NCBI GenBank assembly: GCA_041158345.1
Contig: JBEBBO010000008.1
Location: 841 to 64,840 of the forward strand
From: Pseudomonadota bacterium
Lineage (GTDB): Bacteria > Pseudomonadota > Gammaproteobacteria > Methylococcales > Methylococcaceae
Direction of reading: 5' to 3'
Length of the DNA: 64,000 nucleotides
The notes beneath the pieces were generated by a model. It was not told the DNA's origin. It worked only from the letters and a program-made list of their open reading frames with translations, and searched no databases. Shown here piece by piece: positions 1,446 through 11,713 of this stretch; position 1 is the stretch's first letter; the number at the start of each line of letters is the position of its first letter. The position numbers were made by a program, and so were the translations under genes.

Positions 1446-2357
1446 ATGGAGCTGAAATTGCACTCGGAACCGCACCAGTTTGAAGAACTCGTCGACTTGA
1501 TCAGCGACTATGAGAAGTGTTTTGGAGGGGGGAGCCACTATGAGATTTTAGAAAGTCTCAATCTGTCCGAGGCAATTCACGCGCTTAGACTATCGATCGG
1601 CACCCGAACCCGCCTGAGACTCCCCAGTTGTCCCAGAGGGATCAAGACGCCCCGGCGCAGTGATGGCCTGGATGCGTATCGTGAAGACCGTATGGAAATG
1701 GTTCGAACGATACTTCGGTACCAGAATCTTTCGATTACTGACCGCCGCGTCCTTCGCGCAATGCGGCAGGTTCCCAGGGAATGCTTTGTCCCCTCAATCT
1801 TCCGTCCCGTTGCGTATCGGGATAGCCCGCTCCCCATTGGCTGGGGACAAACGATTTCACAACCTTATGTCATTGCTCTGATGACTGCGCTGCTCAGGCT
1901 GAAAGGGGAAGAGGCCGTATTGGAGTTGGGAACAGGCTCAGGCTATCAGGCAGCCATTCTCAGCTGTCTGACAAAGTGGGTGCATTCGATCGAAATTATT
2001 CCCGAGCTTGCAAGCAGGGCATCAAAAACGCTTAAGAAATTGGGTTACAAAAACGTTGCGGTCCGATCATCCAATGGCATCAACGGGTGGCCAGAAGAGG
2101 CCCCCTTCGACGGCATGCTGATTACTTGCGGCTCGACCCACTTCCCGACCCAGCTTGCCGCTCAGTTAAAGGTCGGTGGGAGGGCAGTAATGCCGATTGG
2201 TCCGGCAGGGGTTCAATCACTCACTCTCGTGACCAAGCATCAGGATCATATTGAACAAGAGCCAATCATTCCCGTGCGGTTTGTACCCTTAATGGGCTTT
2301 GAAAGGAGAGATCAAGACGTGAAGGTTGGGGATCGGGCTCATGGATACCCATCTTGA
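1446..2357 (+). CDS. pcm: protein-L-isoaspartate O-methyltransferase
   Basis: The C-terminal ~220 aa carry PCMT hallmarks: QTISQPYVIALM, the SAM motif VLELGTGSGYQAAILS, and RFVPL near the end. The 82-aa N-terminal extension is unrecognised, and an alternative start at ATG 1692 (MEMVRTIL...) gives a canonical length. Confidence 0.85.
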   Translation: MELKLHSEPHQFEELVDLISDYEKCFGGGSHYEILESLNLSEAIHALRLSIGTRTRLRLPSCPRGIKTPRRSDGLDAYREDRMEMVRTILRYQNLSITDRRVLRAMRQVPRECFVPSIFRPVAYRDSPLPIGWGQTISQPYVIALMTALLRLKGEEAVLELGTGSGYQAAILSCLTKWVHSIEIIPELASRASKTLKKLGYKNVAVRSSNGINGWPEEAPFDGMLITCGSTHFPTQLAAQLKVGGRAVMPIGPAGVQSLTLVTKHQDHIEQEPIIPVRFVPLMGFERRDQDVKVGDRAHGYPS

Positions 2358-3000
2358 TGGCCAGTGCAACCAGTTCTGCCGCATTTTTGACTGCGAGTTT
2401 TTCCAGGATCCGGCTTCGGTGAATTTCGGCTGTACGCGGGCTAATCCCCAGCGCACGTCCAATCATCTTCGCGGTAAATCCCTTACAGATGTATTGGGAG
2501 ATCTCTTGCTCCCTGGGCGTTAGCCGATTAAAGAGCACGGCAAGGCTTTCTTTTTTTGACCGCTCACGAAGCTTCTCTTCCGCAAGCTGGAACGCCCGTT
2601 CAATTGTCTCCATCAATTGTTCTGGGTTCACCGGTTTTTGCAGATAATCAAACGCGCCAGCACGCATACCTGAAACTGCAGAATCAATCCCTGGGTGGCC
2701 CGTAAGAAAGATGATAGGGCAAAACAAGCCATGCTTTTCATTCATGTAACTCTGCACCTCAAGACCATCCAGGTCCGGCATCAGAAGATCCATAACAATA
2801 ACGATGGGTTGATTTGAGGGGATGAATTCATCAAGGAATAATCGGCTAGAGCAATAGGTCGATACCCCAATCCCATGATGAGAAATCAGGTCGGCGATCG
2901 CCTCGCACACCGATGGATCATCATCCACAATAATCACCGTCCTGACGTTAGACGCAAGTTCTTTCTTTTGATTTCTATTGCTTATTCTCATGAGAACCAT
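2266..3000 (-). CDS. response regulator, FixJ/NarL (LuxR-type HTH) family
   Basis: Receiver domain (VIIVDDDPSV...MDLLMPDLDG...FLTGH...DYLQKP) followed by a LuxR-type HTH (LTPREQEISQYICKGFTAKMIGRALGISPRTAEIHRSRILEKL). Confidence 0.85.
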   Translation of the reverse strand: MVLMRISNRNQKKELASNVRTVIIVDDDPSVCEAIADLISHHGIGVSTYCSSRLFLDEFIPSNQPIVIVMDLLMPDLDGLEVQSYMNEKHGLFCPIIFLTGHPGIDSAVSGMRAGAFDYLQKPVNPEQLMETIERAFQLAEEKLRERSKKESLAVLFNRLTPREQEISQYICKGFTAKMIGRALGISPRTAEIHRSRILEKLAVKNAAELVALAIKMGIHEPDPQPSRLDLSFQSPLRVQTARE

Positions 3001-3299: not shown

Positions 3300-3797
3300 T
3301 TAATTTCTTGTCCAAGCAATTCGCACAAGATAATCACCATCGACATATTCCGTATCGAGAGTACCCGAATAGGTCTCCACCATGCAGTCGCCGATCAATG
3401 ATGTCAGATGCGGCTCAGTGAATGTGATGACCTGGCTTCCATCCGCGTGTTTGACACTCCCCATAAGCCTTTTTAAGGGATGTGCCATGCCTTGGCGATC
3501 GATGATCCCGGAAATCATGGCTTCAATCTCGTTGCGATGATGTCTGAAATAGTTTCCTCGCAAGGTGAGGTACCCGGCCGGAAAGCGTTCCCTTATTCGC
3601 TGACAGGCGGGACAGAGACGCCTTTCCGCATCCAGTTGGTACATGAACCAGCACCAACGCCCTGAGGAGTAGAGCGCTCCGCAATCCGGACAGACACACG
3701 GATCCGGCCATTTCCGACGAATTTGATAAGGATCGTGCTGCCACTCCGGTATGTATTGAATAGAGTGTTCAATCAGGGGGTGATTGATCTGATTCAT
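3300..3797 (-). CDS. NMD3-like zinc-ribbon protein (BCAM0308-type family)
   Basis: Two CxxC pairs (CPDCGALY...CPACQRI) are followed by FPAGYLTLRG...HPLKR...FTEP. It is a clear paralog of 11207-11713. The family name is recalled from memory. Confidence 0.6.
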   Translation of the reverse strand: MNQINHPLIEHSIQYIPEWQHDPYQIRRKWPDPCVCPDCGALYSSGRWCWFMYQLDAERRLCPACQRIRERFPAGYLTLRGNYFRHHRNEIEAMISGIIDRQGMAHPLKRLMGSVKHADGSQVITFTEPHLTSLIGDCMVETYSGTLDTEYVDGDYLVRIAWTRN

Positions 3798-4222
3798 ATA
3801 TGGCCTAACTAATGGTAAGGAGTTAAAGCACCCCCACCGTCGGAGGCTCCCACACCTCCGATCTTAGATATCCAGGCCGTTGGAATAAATACGAACAACT
3901 ACCTAATCCCCAATCGCATCTCACAATCACACAGAGATGCAGTCTCACAATTAAAGGGATGAAATGAATGAGCCCACAAAGAATCCTTTGAAGATTTCTC
4001 CAAGGCCGGTGCCAGGACCTCTTCGCTAAGACCGGATTATCTAGGATGGTTTAAGACTAGTTATTTATCCGTATAGTCATTGAATTCAGTACCTCTAAAC
4101 TGGCCTTCAGTGGATGGGGTTGGGTTAATTCGCCCATTGATCATTAATAGGTGTTTTCTCCTATTCCTCAGAAACTGTGTATTGGGCATTTTGCCTCCAA
4201 TTATTTTATAGAGGACATTATT

Positions 4223-4579
4223 ATGAATACTTTGACTAAAGGACTTTCGCTGGTTGCACTGATCGCCGCCGTCAATGTTGCAACTGCAGGGGAACCCATT
4301 GAACTGGCCAGTGCAGATCTGGATCAGATCACTGCGGGTGCCCTTTATGCACCAAATACGCGCCACAACGCCCCGTCTGTCTCATTCTCAGCCGTGGTAG
4401 GACCCAGCGCGCTGGCCATTGGCAGAACCACGCTTGCTAATGCGTCGTTTGCTAATGCCGTAACCAATGGTTCCAGCATGGCAGCCACTGAATCAGCGGG
4501 TCTGGCCGTAGCAAGCGGACCGTTTGGCGCGGTGTCCTATGTGAATACCGGTTCTGCCGTCTCTATGCTCACTCACTGA
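4223..4579 (+). CDS. secreted A/S/G/T/V-rich precursor peptide (118 aa) with a Sec signal plus a double-glycine-like leader
   Basis: The ATG at 4223 lies within track ORF 4151-4579. The signal peptide is MNTLTKGLSLVALIAAVNVATA, followed by ELASADLDQITAG (LSxxELxxIxGG-like). The 79-aa remainder has no Cys and is rich in A, S, G, V, T and N. Confidence 0.6.
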   Translation: MNTLTKGLSLVALIAAVNVATAGEPIELASADLDQITAGALYAPNTRHNAPSVSFSAVVGPSALAIGRTTLANASFANAVTNGSSMAATESAGLAVASGPFGAVSYVNTGSAVSMLTH

Positions 4580-4663
4580 GTAGAGGAGGCTCTAATGATG
4601 GTTATGGTGAGTGATTATGCGGTCGATCTCACCACCATTATTTAGAAAAAGCCATCCTTGCGT

Positions 4664-4691
4664 GTCGGGGCTATGACCTTATAGCCCCGAC
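4664..4691 (+). terminator. intercistronic stem-loop (possible attenuator or partial terminator)
   Basis: GTCGGGGCTAT / ATAGCCCCGAC forms an 11-bp perfect stem with a 6-nt loop, followed by the U-containing TCTATTACT. It sits between the peptide gene and the C39 gene. Confidence 0.35.
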
Positions 4692-4726
4692 TCTATTACT
4701 CAACCGCTGTAACCGAATCACCATCG

Positions 4727-5350
4727 ATGAGAGCACCTCTTGTGAAGAAGCGCTTGCTGATAGGTTTCACATGTCTAATCAGATCCATGGCAATCCCTGC
4801 AGAACCTGTGCATTCCCTGACGGAATTAAGACAAAAGAACGTCATGATGCAGAAGTGGGACATTAGTTGCGGAGCTGCCGCCATTGGAACCATTTTAAGG
4901 TATCACCACGGACTGGATATCTCAGAAAAGGATATTGCCATTTCGCTTATGCAGCGGGATGAATACATCAAGAACCCCCAGCTTGTCAGAATGCGACTTG
5001 GATTCTCATTACTCGACATCAAAAGATATGTCGAGAGTGTTGGCTATATCGGACTGGGTCTGGGTGGACTGCAACTCGCCGATCTGATTGAACGTGCCCC
5101 GGTTATGGTGACCGTCGTTATCAATGGTTACAACCATTTCGTGGTCTTTAGGGGAATCAAGAGGAATCGGGTGTTATTAGCCGATCCCGCATGGGGAAAC
5201 CGAACCCTGACGGTGGATCAGTTCATGGATATGTGGGCGGAAGCTCCCAAGATAGGCCGGGTGGGATTACAGATTATGTCTCCCATCAACGATGAAAAAG
5301 GACCTGAGTCGCTTAATCCACAAGATACCGACTTTATTTCATTTCACTAA
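4727..5350 (+). CDS. stand-alone C39-family cysteine peptidase with an N-terminal signal-like segment (FapD-like)
   Basis: The motif QKWDISCGAAA places Gln 6 residues before the catalytic Cys. In NHFVVFRG...LLADP the His and Asp are 16 residues apart, which is the canonical C39 spacing. The N-terminus KKRLLIGFTCLIRSMAIPA is hydrophobic, and there is no ABC-transporter fusion. Confidence 0.8.
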   Translation: MRAPLVKKRLLIGFTCLIRSMAIPAEPVHSLTELRQKNVMMQKWDISCGAAAIGTILRYHHGLDISEKDIAISLMQRDEYIKNPQLVRMRLGFSLLDIKRYVESVGYIGLGLGGLQLADLIERAPVMVTVVINGYNHFVVFRGIKRNRVLLADPAWGNRTLTVDQFMDMWAEAPKIGRVGLQIMSPINDEKGPESLNPQDTDFISFH

Positions 5351-5376: not shown

Positions 5377-6540
5377 ATGAGGGTGGCGACGATGTATCAG
5401 GTTTTATTGTTGATCGGTCTCCTGACGGGCTCCCTTGCAGGAGAGGCATCGACACGGCCGAGGAAAGTACAGACACCTCTAGAACAGTTACTCTTAGAGC
5501 GCGATCTGCAAATTCAAAGCCTTTTGAATCGCGTGGAAGCGCTGGAAAGCAGAGAGTTAAAACCCGCCTTACCGGTGACAGCCGAATCAAAGGTTGAAAC
5601 AAGTGGTCCGAAGCAATCAACATCCGTCCCAGTCAAAAAGTCGCGCCCAACACCGTCTAAATCGAAAACAGAGCTCGCGGATGGAGAGGACGCAGAGCGG
5701 GCCTTAGAGCGGACTCTGGTCATTAGCGGTGCATCGCTCGTTCCCTACGGACAGGGCGAAGTCCAGCCTGGATTCAACTATCTCCGATATTCGAGCGAAG
5801 GATCGGCTTTATTTCAACAGGGCTCTGCCGTCAGCCTAGCAACAACCAGGGCACACAGTGACATGTATGTGGGTAGTGCCTATGTTCGTCTAGGTCTCCC
5901 CTGGGAGTCCCAACTCGAAACCTACGTCCCGTATGAATCCATCAACCGAACAGATACGTCGATTTCAAATGCATCCATCCTCACATCCGCCAATCGGTCC
6001 GCCAACAGTTTTGGTGATATCCGTTTGGGACTCGCAAAAACCTTGCTGACAGAAAAAAGCTGGTGGCCTGATGTCATTGCGCGCATCACATGGAGTGCGG
6101 ATACGGGAGCCACTCCGTATCTGATTCCCTTGGGATCGGGCTTCAACGAACTGAATGGATCCGTCACGCTATCCAAACGTCAGGATCCCCTGGTCTTTTA
6201 TGGAACAGTTTCCTATCAAGCCGCGTTTTCCAAGGACAACCGATCACCCGGAAACACCCTTGGCTTCGTCATTGGGACCGTTATGGCGGCAAGTCCTGAA
6301 ACCTCGCTCCGGTTTTTCATCAATCAGAATTTTATCTCCGATGCGGAGTTTTACGGAAAAACCATTCAGGGCACTGCCACGAATAGCAGTATGCTGAACA
6401 TAGGCGCTGCATCCGTGCTAGGCAAGGGGTTATTTCTGGACTTCACCTCCGGAATTGGCCTGACTCGGGCTTCTCCAGACTATTCGGTCGGGGTTTCGTT
6501 TGCCTATCGATTCGACCTTCCATTTCTTCCAGCGCTTTAG
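5377..6540 (+). CDS. outer-membrane beta-barrel protein with N-terminal coiled coil and low-complexity linker (FapF-like architecture)
   Basis: Signal peptide MYQVLLLIGLLTGSLAGEA, with a probable start at ATG 5392 preceded by GAGGGTGG. A heptad-like segment LEQLLLERDLQIQSLLNRVEALESRE follows, then a P/S/K/T-rich linker. The last ~270 aa show alternating beta-strand patterns, including FGDIRLGLAK and a terminal SFAYRF. Confidence 0.65.
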   Translation: MRVATMYQVLLLIGLLTGSLAGEASTRPRKVQTPLEQLLLERDLQIQSLLNRVEALESRELKPALPVTAESKVETSGPKQSTSVPVKKSRPTPSKSKTELADGEDAERALERTLVISGASLVPYGQGEVQPGFNYLRYSSEGSALFQQGSAVSLATTRAHSDMYVGSAYVRLGLPWESQLETYVPYESINRTDTSISNASILTSANRSANSFGDIRLGLAKTLLTEKSWWPDVIARITWSADTGATPYLIPLGSGFNELNGSVTLSKRQDPLVFYGTVSYQAAFSKDNRSPGNTLGFVIGTVMAASPETSLRFFINQNFISDAEFYGKTIQGTATNSSMLNIGAASVLGKGLFLDFTSGIGLTRASPDYSVGVSFAYRFDLPFLPAL

Positions 6541-6761
6541 AAAAGCGGGTCGTACCCCAAATAAGCGGATTCTTGGTCTTGACTGATGGAACTTACTACG
6601 GGATGTCCACCTTTAGCTCTGACATATTGTTCTATCGTGCAAGGCTCCGATCCACTAAAGCCAATGAGGGTTGTCACCCTCTGGCGCAGTTGCGGGTCAT
6701 AAATATCAGAGAAAGCTTCAGCCGAAGCGATAAGCAATACCGGTAAGGTCAGTCGTTTCAT
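6537..6761 (-). CDS. small secreted hypothetical protein
   Basis: An internal ATG at 6761 gives MKRLTLPVLLIASAEA (signal-like). No family recognised. Confidence 0.3.
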   Translation of the reverse strand: MKRLTLPVLLIASAEAFSDIYDPQLRQRVTTLIGFSGSEPCTIEQYVRAKGGHPVVSSISQDQESAYLGYDPLF

Positions 6762-7066
6762 ACCTTTATCTCGCTGAGCTCCTTGAGTTAATTGATCACT
6801 GGCAGACCGATCAAGGCATCCCATGTCTCGTCCTAGCCGGCAACAGGCCCCTGTCGAATCGATGAAAAGTGAAGGATCAAAGGCGGATGCTAAAGACCAT
6901 CATTCCCAGAAATAGCAAAGCCCTCGCTGACAACTTGATTTTTTAAAGCCGTCCTCTTTACGCAGCATCGTGACACGCACTAGGCGTTGAAGATTCGGAT
7001 GGACTGTAGCGCCCGAAATTTAAAACCATCTATCCATAGGAATACCTAATCTGTAGACATCAGGAA

Positions 7067-7309
7067 TCATGTAAGCAGATGTAATGCAAACCATGGAACC
7101 AGGGTCAGCAGGATGATTCCGATCTTATACCCACCCAAGAGAATAAAGTGGCATGCATCAAACCTCGCAATTGGCATTGGAAAGAAACGTGATTGCAGGG
7201 AATAGATCTGGTCGCGCCATCCCACCAGAATCATTGAAGAAATAACCAAGATCCCATAATTAAAGATAAACGACCATAGCAAAAACGTTTTTATTGCTTC
7301 CAAGGACAT
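7067..7309 (-). CDS. small membrane protein (80 aa, 2-3 hydrophobic helices)
   Basis: ORF with a GAGGG box upstream and clearly hydrophobic segments. Confidence 0.4.
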   Translation of the reverse strand: MSLEAIKTFLLWSFIFNYGILVISSMILVGWRDQIYSLQSRFFPMPIARFDACHFILLGGYKIGIILLTLVPWFALHLLT

Positions 7310-7427
7310 AAATAAACCCTCATCTATATATTAAAGGCAATAGATTATCATAGATCCATGCCCTGTATTGTCCGTATGAATACCCCATGAAGCCGTTATC
7401 ATGCTGAGTATTAACTAATTATTGGCT

Positions 7428-7694
7428 CTACTCCCATCGGGGCCTAGTTCTGCGATCCATTCGCGGACTCTGTTGTTTTCGCAAAAGACTTTGAAGGTTG
7501 CCGTTCAATTCATATGTAAAGATGGGGTCCCAGTCCGCTCTCAAACCTGTCTCAATCGCTTCAGATAAAATGTCATTAAGGATACCAACCGTTCTTTGTC
7601 GCTGACAGACCTGTAGAACAGAACGCAGCGTATCCTCATCCTCTGGATACCGGTCAAGGTACTTCGCAAGCATAAGATAATCAATAACCTTCAT
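7428..7694 (-). CDS. hypothetical protein (88 aa)
   Basis: ORF with GGAGGT 6 nt upstream of the ATG. Confidence 0.4.
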   Translation of the reverse strand: MKVIDYLMLAKYLDRYPEDEDTLRSVLQVCQRQRTVGILNDILSEAIETGLRADWDPIFTYELNGNLQSLLRKQQSPRMDRRTRPRWE

Positions 7695-7919
7695 ACCCTA
7701 CCTCCACAGGACGCAGTCCTGATATGGGTTAGCCAATATAAGTTAGTATAACAACCTGGTTTTACCAACATATCAGAGATGGGTCTCTGATGTCTGTATT
7801 CAACCTCACCTAGGTATTTCGACGAATAGAATGGCGTCATGCGTCCTGATCTGATTCTTGCGATGCCTGCGAGGTATATCACTGGGCAGAAACCAATCAC
7901 TCTGCACTCGGAGTCCCCT

Positions 7920-11206: not shown

Positions 11207-11713
11207 TCAAGACCAACGCGTCCACCACACACGGAGCAGAAATTCTCCAGGCTGGTAGTCGAACTTCAATTCCCCTTTGTAGGCATCATAAAGCGCCTCA
11301 CCCACAGCCCTTGCCAACTGCGGGTCCGTGAATGTCATGCACGTCTGACCTTCGGCCGCTTGGTGCGTTTCAATGACTCTTTTCAGGGGATGTTCCGCCT
11401 TTTCTTTCATTTCAACATTCACGATCAGATGGTTAATCTCGGGTTCGTGTTGTCTATAAAAGTCTCCGCCAATCGTCAGGAATCCCGCGGGGCAGCGGTC
11501 TTTGATTCGCCTACAAGCCGGACATAATTTGAGCACTGCGTATGAATCAGCTTTCTGCCACGTCCATCGCCCTTTGTGATAGCTCGCACCACATTCGGCA
11601 CAAGCACTCGGTTCCGCTAATTTTTCCTGGCCATGATAGGGATCATGCTGAAGCTCTCTCAGATTTCTAATTTGGAAAGCTTGTTCATGGTGTTCAAAGC
11701 GATGCGTGGACAT
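11207..11713 (-). CDS. NMD3-like zinc-ribbon protein, paralog of 3300-3797
   Basis: Same architecture as the paralog: HDPY, CAECGASY...CPACRRI, CPAGFLTIGG, HPLKR, FTDP and a terminal W(T)R. Confidence 0.6.
   Translation of the reverse strand: MSTHRFEHHEQAFQIRNLRELQHDPYHGQEKLAEPSACAECGASYHKGRWTWQKADSYAVLKLCPACRRIKDRCPAGFLTIGGDFYRQHEPEINHLIVNVEMKEKAEHPLKRVIETHQAAEGQTCMTFTDPQLARAVGEALYDAYKGELKFDYQPGEFLLRVWWTRWS

Follow-up and report, generated by a model that had tools for sequence, protein, structure and literature searches.

A double-glycine-type propeptide behind a Sec-type signal, and the probable two-step secretion module to which it belongs

What does a leader of the double-glycine (GG) type do when it stands behind a Sec-type signal peptide, next to a peptidase that itself looks exported? 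The question is raised by a small precursor gene in the stretch of DNA analysed here (the window; 64,000 nt, positions 841 to 64,840 of contig JBEBBO010000008.1 in the Methylococcaceae assembly GCA_041158345.1). Together with a stand-alone C39 cysteine peptidase and a FapF-like outer-membrane barrel, it probably makes up a three-gene, two-step secretion module related to Fap and Nap, in which the cargo carries two N-terminal signals in series. The features on which the argument rests are listed below in window coordinates; a downward arrow marks a cleavage point.

4223..4579, + strand: precursor gene, 118 aa plus stop, ATG at 4223 and stop codon at 4577-4579 (from the list of open reading frames)
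4211..4215, + strand: Shine-Dalgarno-like GAGGA, 7 nt 5' of the precursor ATG (read off the sequence)
4223..4288, + strand: Sec-type signal peptide, residues 1-22, MNTLTKGLSLVALIAAVNVATA, with a predicted signal peptidase I site ATA↓G (heuristic analysis of n-, h- and c-regions)
4289..4339, + strand: double-glycine-type propeptide, residues 23-39, GEPIELASADLDQITAG, with a predicted C39 cut after Ala38-Gly39 (38.2 bits on the family matrix described below)
4340..4576, + strand: predicted mature cargo, residues 40-118, ALYAPNTRH...SMLTH, 79 residues rich in Ala, Ser, Gly and Thr with few charges
4727..5350, + strand: stand-alone C39 cysteine peptidase, 207 aa, with a signal-like N-terminus (Pfam PF03412; C48, H137, D153)
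5377..6540, + strand: FapF-like outer-membrane barrel, 387 aa, with a signal, a coiled coil containing R-h-x-x-h-E (as RVEALE), a Pro/Ser/Lys-rich linker and a beta-barrel

The precursor is laid out as MNTLTKGLSLVALIAAVNVATA ↓ GEPIELASADLDQITAG ↓ ALYAPNTRH..., the signal having one Lys and an 11-residue hydrophobic core (GLSLVALIAAV) ahead of ATA↓G. A preliminary description made from the sequence alone had seen a normal Sec signal with an A-T-A site here, which is borne out by the heuristic region analysis and by the conservation of A-x-A in the homologous leaders. It had also read L-12, D-8, L-7, I-4 and G-1 with Ala at -2, and the sequence reads exactly so: the window propeptide carries L-12, D-8, L-7, I-4, A-2 and G-1, the register from L-12 (L28) to G-1 (G39) spanning residues 28-39 and nt 4304-4339. 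The range of nt 4301-4339 given for the motif is correct at its end but not at its start, since 4301 takes in E27 and L-12 starts at 4304. The stretch around the predicted A-G site is GEPIELASADLDQITAGALYAPNTR. The public gene call for this protein (P0001) differs from the reading used here, with 142 aa from a GTG start at 4151. Family models give no guidance: Pfam and NCBIfam scans of 11 precursors (that of the window and ten homologues) returned no matching family, and the curated double-glycine leader models of NCBIfam, including the TIGR bacteriocin model, matched neither the window precursor at E <= 0.1 nor the ten homologous precursors at E <= 1.

Could the double-glycine likeness be coincidental, the gene simply encoding an ordinary Sec-secreted protein unrelated to the adjacent peptidase? 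A short motif in a protein with few close homologues leaves some room for that. Just two relatives match over the whole length, P0002 (59% identity) and P0123, the latter the one further true member found by a HMMER search with a two-sequence precursor alignment, which also gave two leader-only matches. A leader-profile search of a database of 5.8 billion proteins yielded 139 word-sharing candidates, none with E <= 10, the motif being too short for a database of that size. Loci were also gathered through the peptidase (80 genome loci fetched; the locus scans cover 82) and scored with a 17-position matrix built from homologous leaders, at a threshold of 18 bits. The window site (4289-4339) scores 38.2 bits, with no other site in the 64 kb above 8 bits. 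Hits of at least 18 bits were found in 77 of the 82 peptidase-anchored loci, while codon-shuffled versions of all 82 peak at 16.7 bits. Four of the five matrix-negative loci have less than 1 kb of sequence 5' of the peptidase; the fifth is L037.

Selection separates the two parts of the precursor. Residues 1-39 are nearly unchanged in P0002 and P0123 (…ADMDQITAG-G and …ADLDYITAG-G), while the cores have diverged. In codon changes relative to the closest relative, locus L001, 9 synonymous and 2 non-synonymous differences fall in the propeptide, against 23 and 42 in the core (Fisher p = 0.0065). The propeptide is under purifying selection and the core is hypervariable.

The association was also approached from the motif, using a degenerate DNA pattern for L-x3-[E/Q]-M-D-x-V-T-A-G on metagenome contigs, independently of the peptidase. 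At least 120 stretches were found. Among the matches listed, 98 carry matrix-positive sites (223 in all), often as two to four tandem genes about 400 nt apart, and a C39 gene and/or a barrel gene is present in 19 of 30 site-bearing stretches of at least 5 kb and in 11 of 18 of at least 8 kb; the exceptions include evident chance matches inside an ATP-binding cassette (ABC) permease, but also some true leader clusters, which leaves the association strong. The gene association is thus seen directly in both directions, as are the sequence features themselves, the family, fold and triad of the peptidase, and the selection pattern. With a window score far above the null maximum, a motif present at most of the peptidase-anchored loci, an association that also holds in reverse and a propeptide under purifying selection, the comparative data effectively refute coincidence.

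What the leaders share, and where the sharing ends, was read from a stricter set. A strict regular expression combined with a signal-like N-terminus found 61 sites in 42 loci and none in five codon shuffles or a reversed control; applied anywhere in open frames (1.04 million residues), the pattern occurred 66 times, 61 of them behind a signal-like N-terminus. Anchored on A-G, the family consensus is A-x-A ↓ (A/G)-E-P-x-x-L-(S/T)-x-x-(E/D/Q)-(M/L)-D-x-(V/I)-(T/S)-A-G ↓. Across the 61 leaders, E/D at -8, M/L at -7 and V/I at -4 are universal (Q at -8 also occurs among matrix hits), D at -6 is found in 60, Ala at -2 in 60 and Gly at -1 in 56, with A/S enriched at -20, A at -18 and S/T at -11. Several of these positions were not imposed by the search pattern: Leu at -12 (60/61), Glu-Pro at -16/-15, and A-x-A at -20/-18. 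The preliminary description had suggested aligning homologous precursors as a check, and its L/L/I/AG positions do prove to be conserved across homologous loci, spaced as in double-glycine leaders. The median leader end is residue 40. Positions -2/-1 hold about 4 bits of information, and each of those from +1 to +7 less than 1 bit, a sharp drop after A-G that, judged from the alignment, is the signature of a processing boundary. A register one residue later, after A-G-X, was considered and ruled out, with +1 hypervariable and the AG↓ register reproducing the spacing of colicin V.

Among characterised leaders, the closest in sequence to the propeptide GEPIELASADLDQITAG is that of colicin V, LTLNELDSVSGG (also as MRTLTLNELDSVSGG). 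With 22.4 bits on the family matrix it exceeds the null maximum of 16.7, and 501 plasmids with a cvaC annotation carry the leader sequence at 100% identity. Set side by side, colicin V LTLNELDSVSGG↓ and the family L(S/T)xx(E/D/Q)(M/L)DxV(T/S)AG↓ have the same leader pattern, with Ala for Gly at -2 in the family as the one systematic departure. The peptidase-containing ABC transporters of the CvaB type (PCAT1, ComA, LahT) likewise share their peptidase fold and catalytic triad with the C39 protein of the window.

The signal that precedes the propeptide has a variant. In a lipobox subfamily from metagenome stretches (L090, L114, L130, L162, L168, L178), …VAGC or …VGGC replaces the A-x-A site and is followed 17-20 residues later by ...G(A/K)ARILTG(F/A/L)EMDxVTAG; cleavage at A-G would free such a protein from its lipid anchor. 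This arrangement lends something to the idea that the hydrophobic N-terminus is generally a transient membrane anchor, uncut by signal peptidase I, from which the C39 protein releases the cargo after A-G as a "leader peptidase", since in the lipobox subfamily a C39 cut would release a lipid-anchored precursor. For the window the idea is quite unlikely. A good A-x-A at -20/-18 followed by Glu-Pro, in the window and in most homologues, is typical of a signal peptidase I substrate, and for the window the two models differ merely in whether there is one cut or two.

The peptidase is the best defined of the three proteins. It matches Pfam PF03412 with 51.7 bits (cut-off 22, E = 1e-13), and Cys48, His137 and Asp153 are invariant in 24 homologues. 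Its N-terminus, MRAPLVKKRLLIGFTCLIRSMA↓IP, is signal-like. The public call (P0003) has 187 aa from Met21, which would lose the signal; the longer start is favoured because all 24 aligned homologues have a hydrophobic N-terminal extension. Public starts like those of P0001 and P0003 would mask a periplasmic location in automated annotation. In the AlphaFold2 model (predicted local distance difference test, pLDDT, 86) the protein has the C39 fold, and its best structural neighbours by Foldseek are double-glycine peptidase domains: PCAT1 (including a substrate-bound structure), ComA and leader-bound LahT150. The family is large: at E <= 1e-5 it numbers 1071 proteins of the Alpha-, Beta- and Gammaproteobacteria, for the most part 50-60% identical. 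Among NCBIfam models, FapD (96.5 bits, cut-off 330) and FilB (93.4 bits, cut-off 475) come nearest, with scores far below both cut-offs. That a signal-bearing C39 protein adjoins the precursor had been remarked at the outset, and the PF03412 match, the invariant triad, the signal-like N-terminus and the lack of an ABC transporter in the module all agree with it.

The barrel is nearest to FapF, again at a distance. NCBIfam gives FapF at 39.8 bits (E = 2.5e-10, cut-off 700) and FilC at 21.2 bits (cut-off 630), both below cut-off, and a sequence search of the PDB matches FapF alone (5O65, 5O67 and 5O68, E ~1e-5). FapF itself has a signal, a trimeric coiled coil with R-h-x-x-h-E, a disordered linker and a 12-stranded barrel; what can be read from the window sequence is a signal, a heptad-like region with RVEALE, a linker, and a C-terminal barrel region that matches FapF. 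Homologous barrels have a signal, a coiled coil (…ERDxxIxxLxxRVxxLE) and a Pro/Ala/Ser-rich linker ahead of the barrel domain, and R-h-x-x-h-E, described for FapF as a coiled-coil trimerisation motif (PMC6173795), occurs in 41 of 58 of them. A barrel homologue lies beside the C39 gene in 71 of the 82 loci, mostly directly downstream; the loci without one are mostly contigs that end soon after the C39 gene.

With peptidase and barrel in view, a different role for the motif has to be weighed, as an uncleaved targeting or chaperone-binding signal that docks the cargo to the coiled coil of the barrel or to the C39 protein, the protease acting elsewhere, for example on the disordered linker of the barrel. 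The N-terminal 22 residues of mature CsgA, which target it to CsgG, offer a comparison. The barrel of the window does have a long linker, Rouse et al. weighed cleavage of the FapF linker by FapD (PMC5557850), and some ABC transporters of type 1 secretion have inactive C39-like domains that only bind their substrates (e.g., 3ZUA, which is among the fold hits). Here, however, the catalytic triad is invariant, conservation stops sharply after A-G, and the motif is nearly identical to the colicin V leader, which is known to be cut at that point. The small residues at -2/-1 fit the needs of a C39 active site, and docking alone would leave them unexplained. A docking role without cleavage is accordingly improbable.

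The two-step secretion module proposed at the outset would then work as follows. The Sec-type signal (residues 1-22) would carry the unfolded precursor over the inner membrane, where signal peptidase I would cut at ATA↓G. The 17-residue propeptide GEPIELASADLDQITAG so exposed would be a periplasmic address tag for the Sec-exported, stand-alone C39 protein, which would cut after Ala38-Gly39. That cleavage would be coupled to, or license, export of the low-complexity mature protein onto the cell surface or into the medium by way of a FapF-like trimeric barrel. Processing by a periplasmic C39 protein had been put forward in the preliminary description as little characterised. The conserved motif supports the first part of this, the cut itself being a prediction. 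The second part is a fair description, though the process already has precedents in FapD/FapF (PMC5557850) and NapP/NapF (PMC11798529).

Several points weigh against this two-step scheme. We infer from sequence the signal peptidase cut, the C39 cut at A-G, export through the barrel and the function of the mature product. The signal calls in the precursor, the C39 protein and the barrel rest on heuristics and on the conservation of A-x-A at -20/-18, and the AlphaFold2 model of the precursor (pLDDT 34) is not confident and is uninformative. Ala rather than Gly stands at -2 in 60 of 61 leaders, so that a specificity for A-G has to be assumed. A FapD-like function would be transferred by analogy only, the peptidase scoring far below the equivalog cut-offs of both FapD and FilB, and FapD's own substrate was still to be identified (PMC6173800). 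The link between leader and peptidase is also not strictly in cis. Some genuine metagenomic leader clusters show no C39 gene in view, and L037, a complete Methylobacter genome, has the C39-barrel pair (5869-7841) with no precursor or leader reading frame within 6 kb; presumably the cargo is encoded in another part of that genome.

What is secreted? The cores that follow the 61 leaders are 23-192 residues long (median 88) and 47% Ala+Ser+Gly+Thr. Cores from different loci are unrelated. So, often, are those of tandem paralogues within a locus, and many loci encode two or three precursors in a row whose cores have nothing in common. The Oxalobacteraceae loci (L008, L010, L031, L034, L047, L048, L056) have their precursors in tandem downstream of the peptidase, with curlin-like cores of 41-50 aa (Q-x-N-x-SPVT-x-VQ-x-N-x-L-x-x-GGGN-x-A-x-V-x-SGN-x-x-x-I-x-Q). 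A vicinal-cysteine motif (…A-C-C-G/Q… or …D-C-C-G-A…) is common to the otherwise unrelated cores of L040, L061, L067, L071, L078 and L081. Other cores show extreme Tyr-, Trp- or Asp-richness (L025, L060) or long Lys/Arg tails (L012, L035, L076).

A role as an extracellular fibre, matrix or surface protein is tentatively suggested, because the cores are of low complexity and weakly charged, the Oxalobacteraceae repeats are curlin-like, and the nearest characterised barrel is an amyloid exporter. A microcin- or bacteriocin-like toxin, with the module as a Sec-dependent bacteriocin export system, is less likely than this and on the whole doubtful. It would suit a leader closest to that of colicin V, a 79-aa Gly/Ala/Ser-rich core of low charge that resembles class II microcins, and hypervariable, multi-copy cores of the kind expected from conflict-driven diversification; Nap gives it a precedent (PMC11798529). 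Yet no conserved candidate immunity gene was seen beside the precursors, the neighbours in the window being common to close relatives only, and many cores are 100-190 aa long. Several are curlin-like (Oxalobacteraceae) or Tyr-rich and of low complexity, and among characterised barrels the closest is an exporter of amyloid subunits.

The surroundings of the module add two further features.

4664..4691, + strand: 12-bp GC-rich hairpin in the 147-nt spacer between precursor and peptidase (4580-4726); the fold of 4575-4730 has -57.8 kcal/mol, z = -5.5
2266..3000, - strand: response regulator with a LuxR/GerE DNA-binding domain (Pfam Response_reg and GerE), a possible regulator by context only

The spacer of L001 (2474-2625) has a comparable GC-rich hairpin at the same position, followed by a U-tract. 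The hairpin is possibly an attenuator or partial terminator, or an mRNA stabiliser, that would raise the ratio of precursor to machinery transcripts. A scan for promoter and terminator consensus sequences found nothing in excess of shuffle expectation. LuxR-type matches lie within ~6 kb in 16 of the 82 loci; the neighbour in the window may recall the control of curli by CsgD, or may be generic. Two paralogues of the BCAM0308 family, at 3300-3797 and 11207-11713 (both on the - strand), are 40% identical, 8 kb apart, and zinc-ribbon-like (CxxC...CxxC). One of these genes is divergently adjacent to the precursor, an arrangement that is syntenic in L001 and L002 and absent from the other 80 loci. 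Neither an ABC transporter nor a modifying enzyme was found for the module among the window reading frames and Pfam-scanned flanks. A reading of the cargo as a ribosomally synthesised and post-translationally modified peptide was ruled out, no genes for modifying enzymes being conserved beside the module.

The literature, Pfam and NCBIfam yielded no description of precursors in which a Sec signal is followed by a GG-type propeptide, and this tandem, with its large family of hypervariable cargos, appears to be undescribed. It marks hundreds of secreted "hypothetical" proteins of methanotrophs, nitrifiers, sulfur oxidisers and Oxalobacteraceae. Used as a search key, the propeptide could lead to new extracellular proteins of the fibre, matrix or toxin kind, and engineers could employ it as a secretion tag. 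In evolutionary terms, a pairing of leader and C39 domain that is normally cytoplasmic and coupled to an ABC transporter would have moved to the periplasm and to an outer-membrane barrel. The substrate and recognition rule of FapD-type proteases have been an unsettled matter since 2017 (PMC5557850, PMC6173800). The present family offers a clear candidate substrate, its 17-residue propeptide being defined and its scissile bond predicted, and it points to the places to search in FapE and FilA.

How, then, does the module compare with systems already known? Classical double-glycine leaders have an acidic residue at -8 and hydrophobic ones at -4, -7 and -12, as does the window propeptide. At -2/-1, classical C39 sites are GG, GA or GS, whereas the window has A38-G39. 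Classical leaders lie at the extreme N-terminus without a Sec signal, while that of the window is internal, starting at residue 23 behind a Sec-type signal; and the C39 domain that removes them is part of an ABC exporter and works in the cytoplasm, while the window peptidase is free and signal-bearing, in a module without an ABC transporter.

Fap is the closest in layout, with a Sec-exported, stand-alone C39 protein beside FapF, a protein of coiled coil, linker and beta-barrel (PMC5557850, PMC6173795), and with substrates that are unfolded, of low complexity and Sec-dependent, as window-type cargos are. Secretion of FapC through FapF depends on the catalytic Cys of FapD, a periplasmic enzyme (PMC5557850). 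The differences are in membership and in substrate. The window proteins are FapD-like at 96.5 bits against a cut-off of 330 and FapF-like at 39.8 against 700, where Aeromonas FapD scores 249 and FapF 371. None of FapA, FapB, FapC, FapE and their repeats is present in the window. Fap proteins have no canonical C39 sequences according to the authors (PMC5557850, PMC6173800), whereas window-type cargos bear an explicit GG-type propeptide. Hidden Markov models of FapD and FapF are known to match many non-Fap proteins, and fapD-fapF pairs with undescribed substrates occur in other phyla (PMC3792158, PMC6173800). One Thiotrichales contig (L067, 55-7905) has a fapCDEF-like operon adjoining a window-type module of two AG-leader precursors, C39 and barrel. 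The two systems stand there side by side; Fap and the window-type module therefore coexist and are distinct.

FapE and FapE-like proteins have a weaker motif soon after the signal, in the same register as a double-glycine leader (L..x-E-L-x-x-L/M-R-G-R↓Y): LADGELAHLRGR↓YV in Aeromonas FapE (L083:7593-8237), LEDAELGEMRGR↓YV in L067 (1954-2766) and IADSDLATLCGG↓FR in L075 (10120-10791). All three have L/I at -12, E/D at -8, L at -7, L/M at -4 and G at -2. The resemblance suggests that FapE may be a substrate of FapD, cut at that motif. Published mass spectrometry includes no peptides from the N-terminus of FapE (PMC5557850), and a tblastn search of plasmids with Aeromonas FapE returned the query itself only.

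The nap island of Neisseria encodes a C39 peptidase (NapP) and a FapF homologue (NapF) with small GG-motif peptides (NapA-C), for which periplasmic cleavage and export through the barrel have been proposed (PMC11798529), and is comparable to the window module in this respect. Nap peptides are short, cationic and helical, with a classical N-terminal GG leader, and a holin-like protein, NapH, is proposed for crossing the inner membrane (PMC11798529). No Sec signal is described for them (PMC11798529), while the window-type leader lies behind one and ends in A-G. The window cargo is 79 aa and nearly uncharged, and those of the family are 23-192 aa, mostly uncharged and of low complexity, against short and cationic peptides by the description of Nap. 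The Neisseria peptidase is only ~28% identical to that of the window, and no accessory genes like NapH, NapI or NapR were found among the window reading frames listed or the Pfam-scanned flanking ones.

The fil locus of Acinetobacter (FilA, a DUF6160 protein; FilB, C39; FilC, barrel) supplies the second-best NCBIfam matches of the window proteins, and FilA resembles the window tandem in having a Sec-like signal followed by a leader-like stretch, …MDDAALSAATGQ↓DG. In one Acinetobacter FilA (L085:5673-6518, just 5' of FilB and FilC) the stretch reads ...QSMDDAALSAATGQ↓DGI, hydrophobic at -12, -7 and -4 with Gly at -2, and is a possible cleavage site for FilB. Fil differs in belonging to other equivalog families, in the size of FilA (280 aa) and in a locus that adds the FadL-like FilD and other genes; the window precursor has no Pfam match to DUF6160. 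A literature search found no published mechanism for FilB/FilC.

On their sequences, then, the window proteins fall outside Fap, Fil, Nap and the classical double-glycine systems, yet the module is proposed to work like them. A broader reading, to which we give slightly less than an even chance, is that these are parts of a widespread, unannotated proteobacterial route, in which a colicin-V-like propeptide behind a Sec or lipoprotein signal would hand low-complexity cargos to a FapD-like C39 protein and a FapF-like trimeric barrel. Such a route would unify Fap (FapE, L..ELxxLRGR↓Y), Fil (FilA, …LSAATGQ↓DG) and Nap with the window-type module, and would give proteases of the FapD type a rule of recognition.

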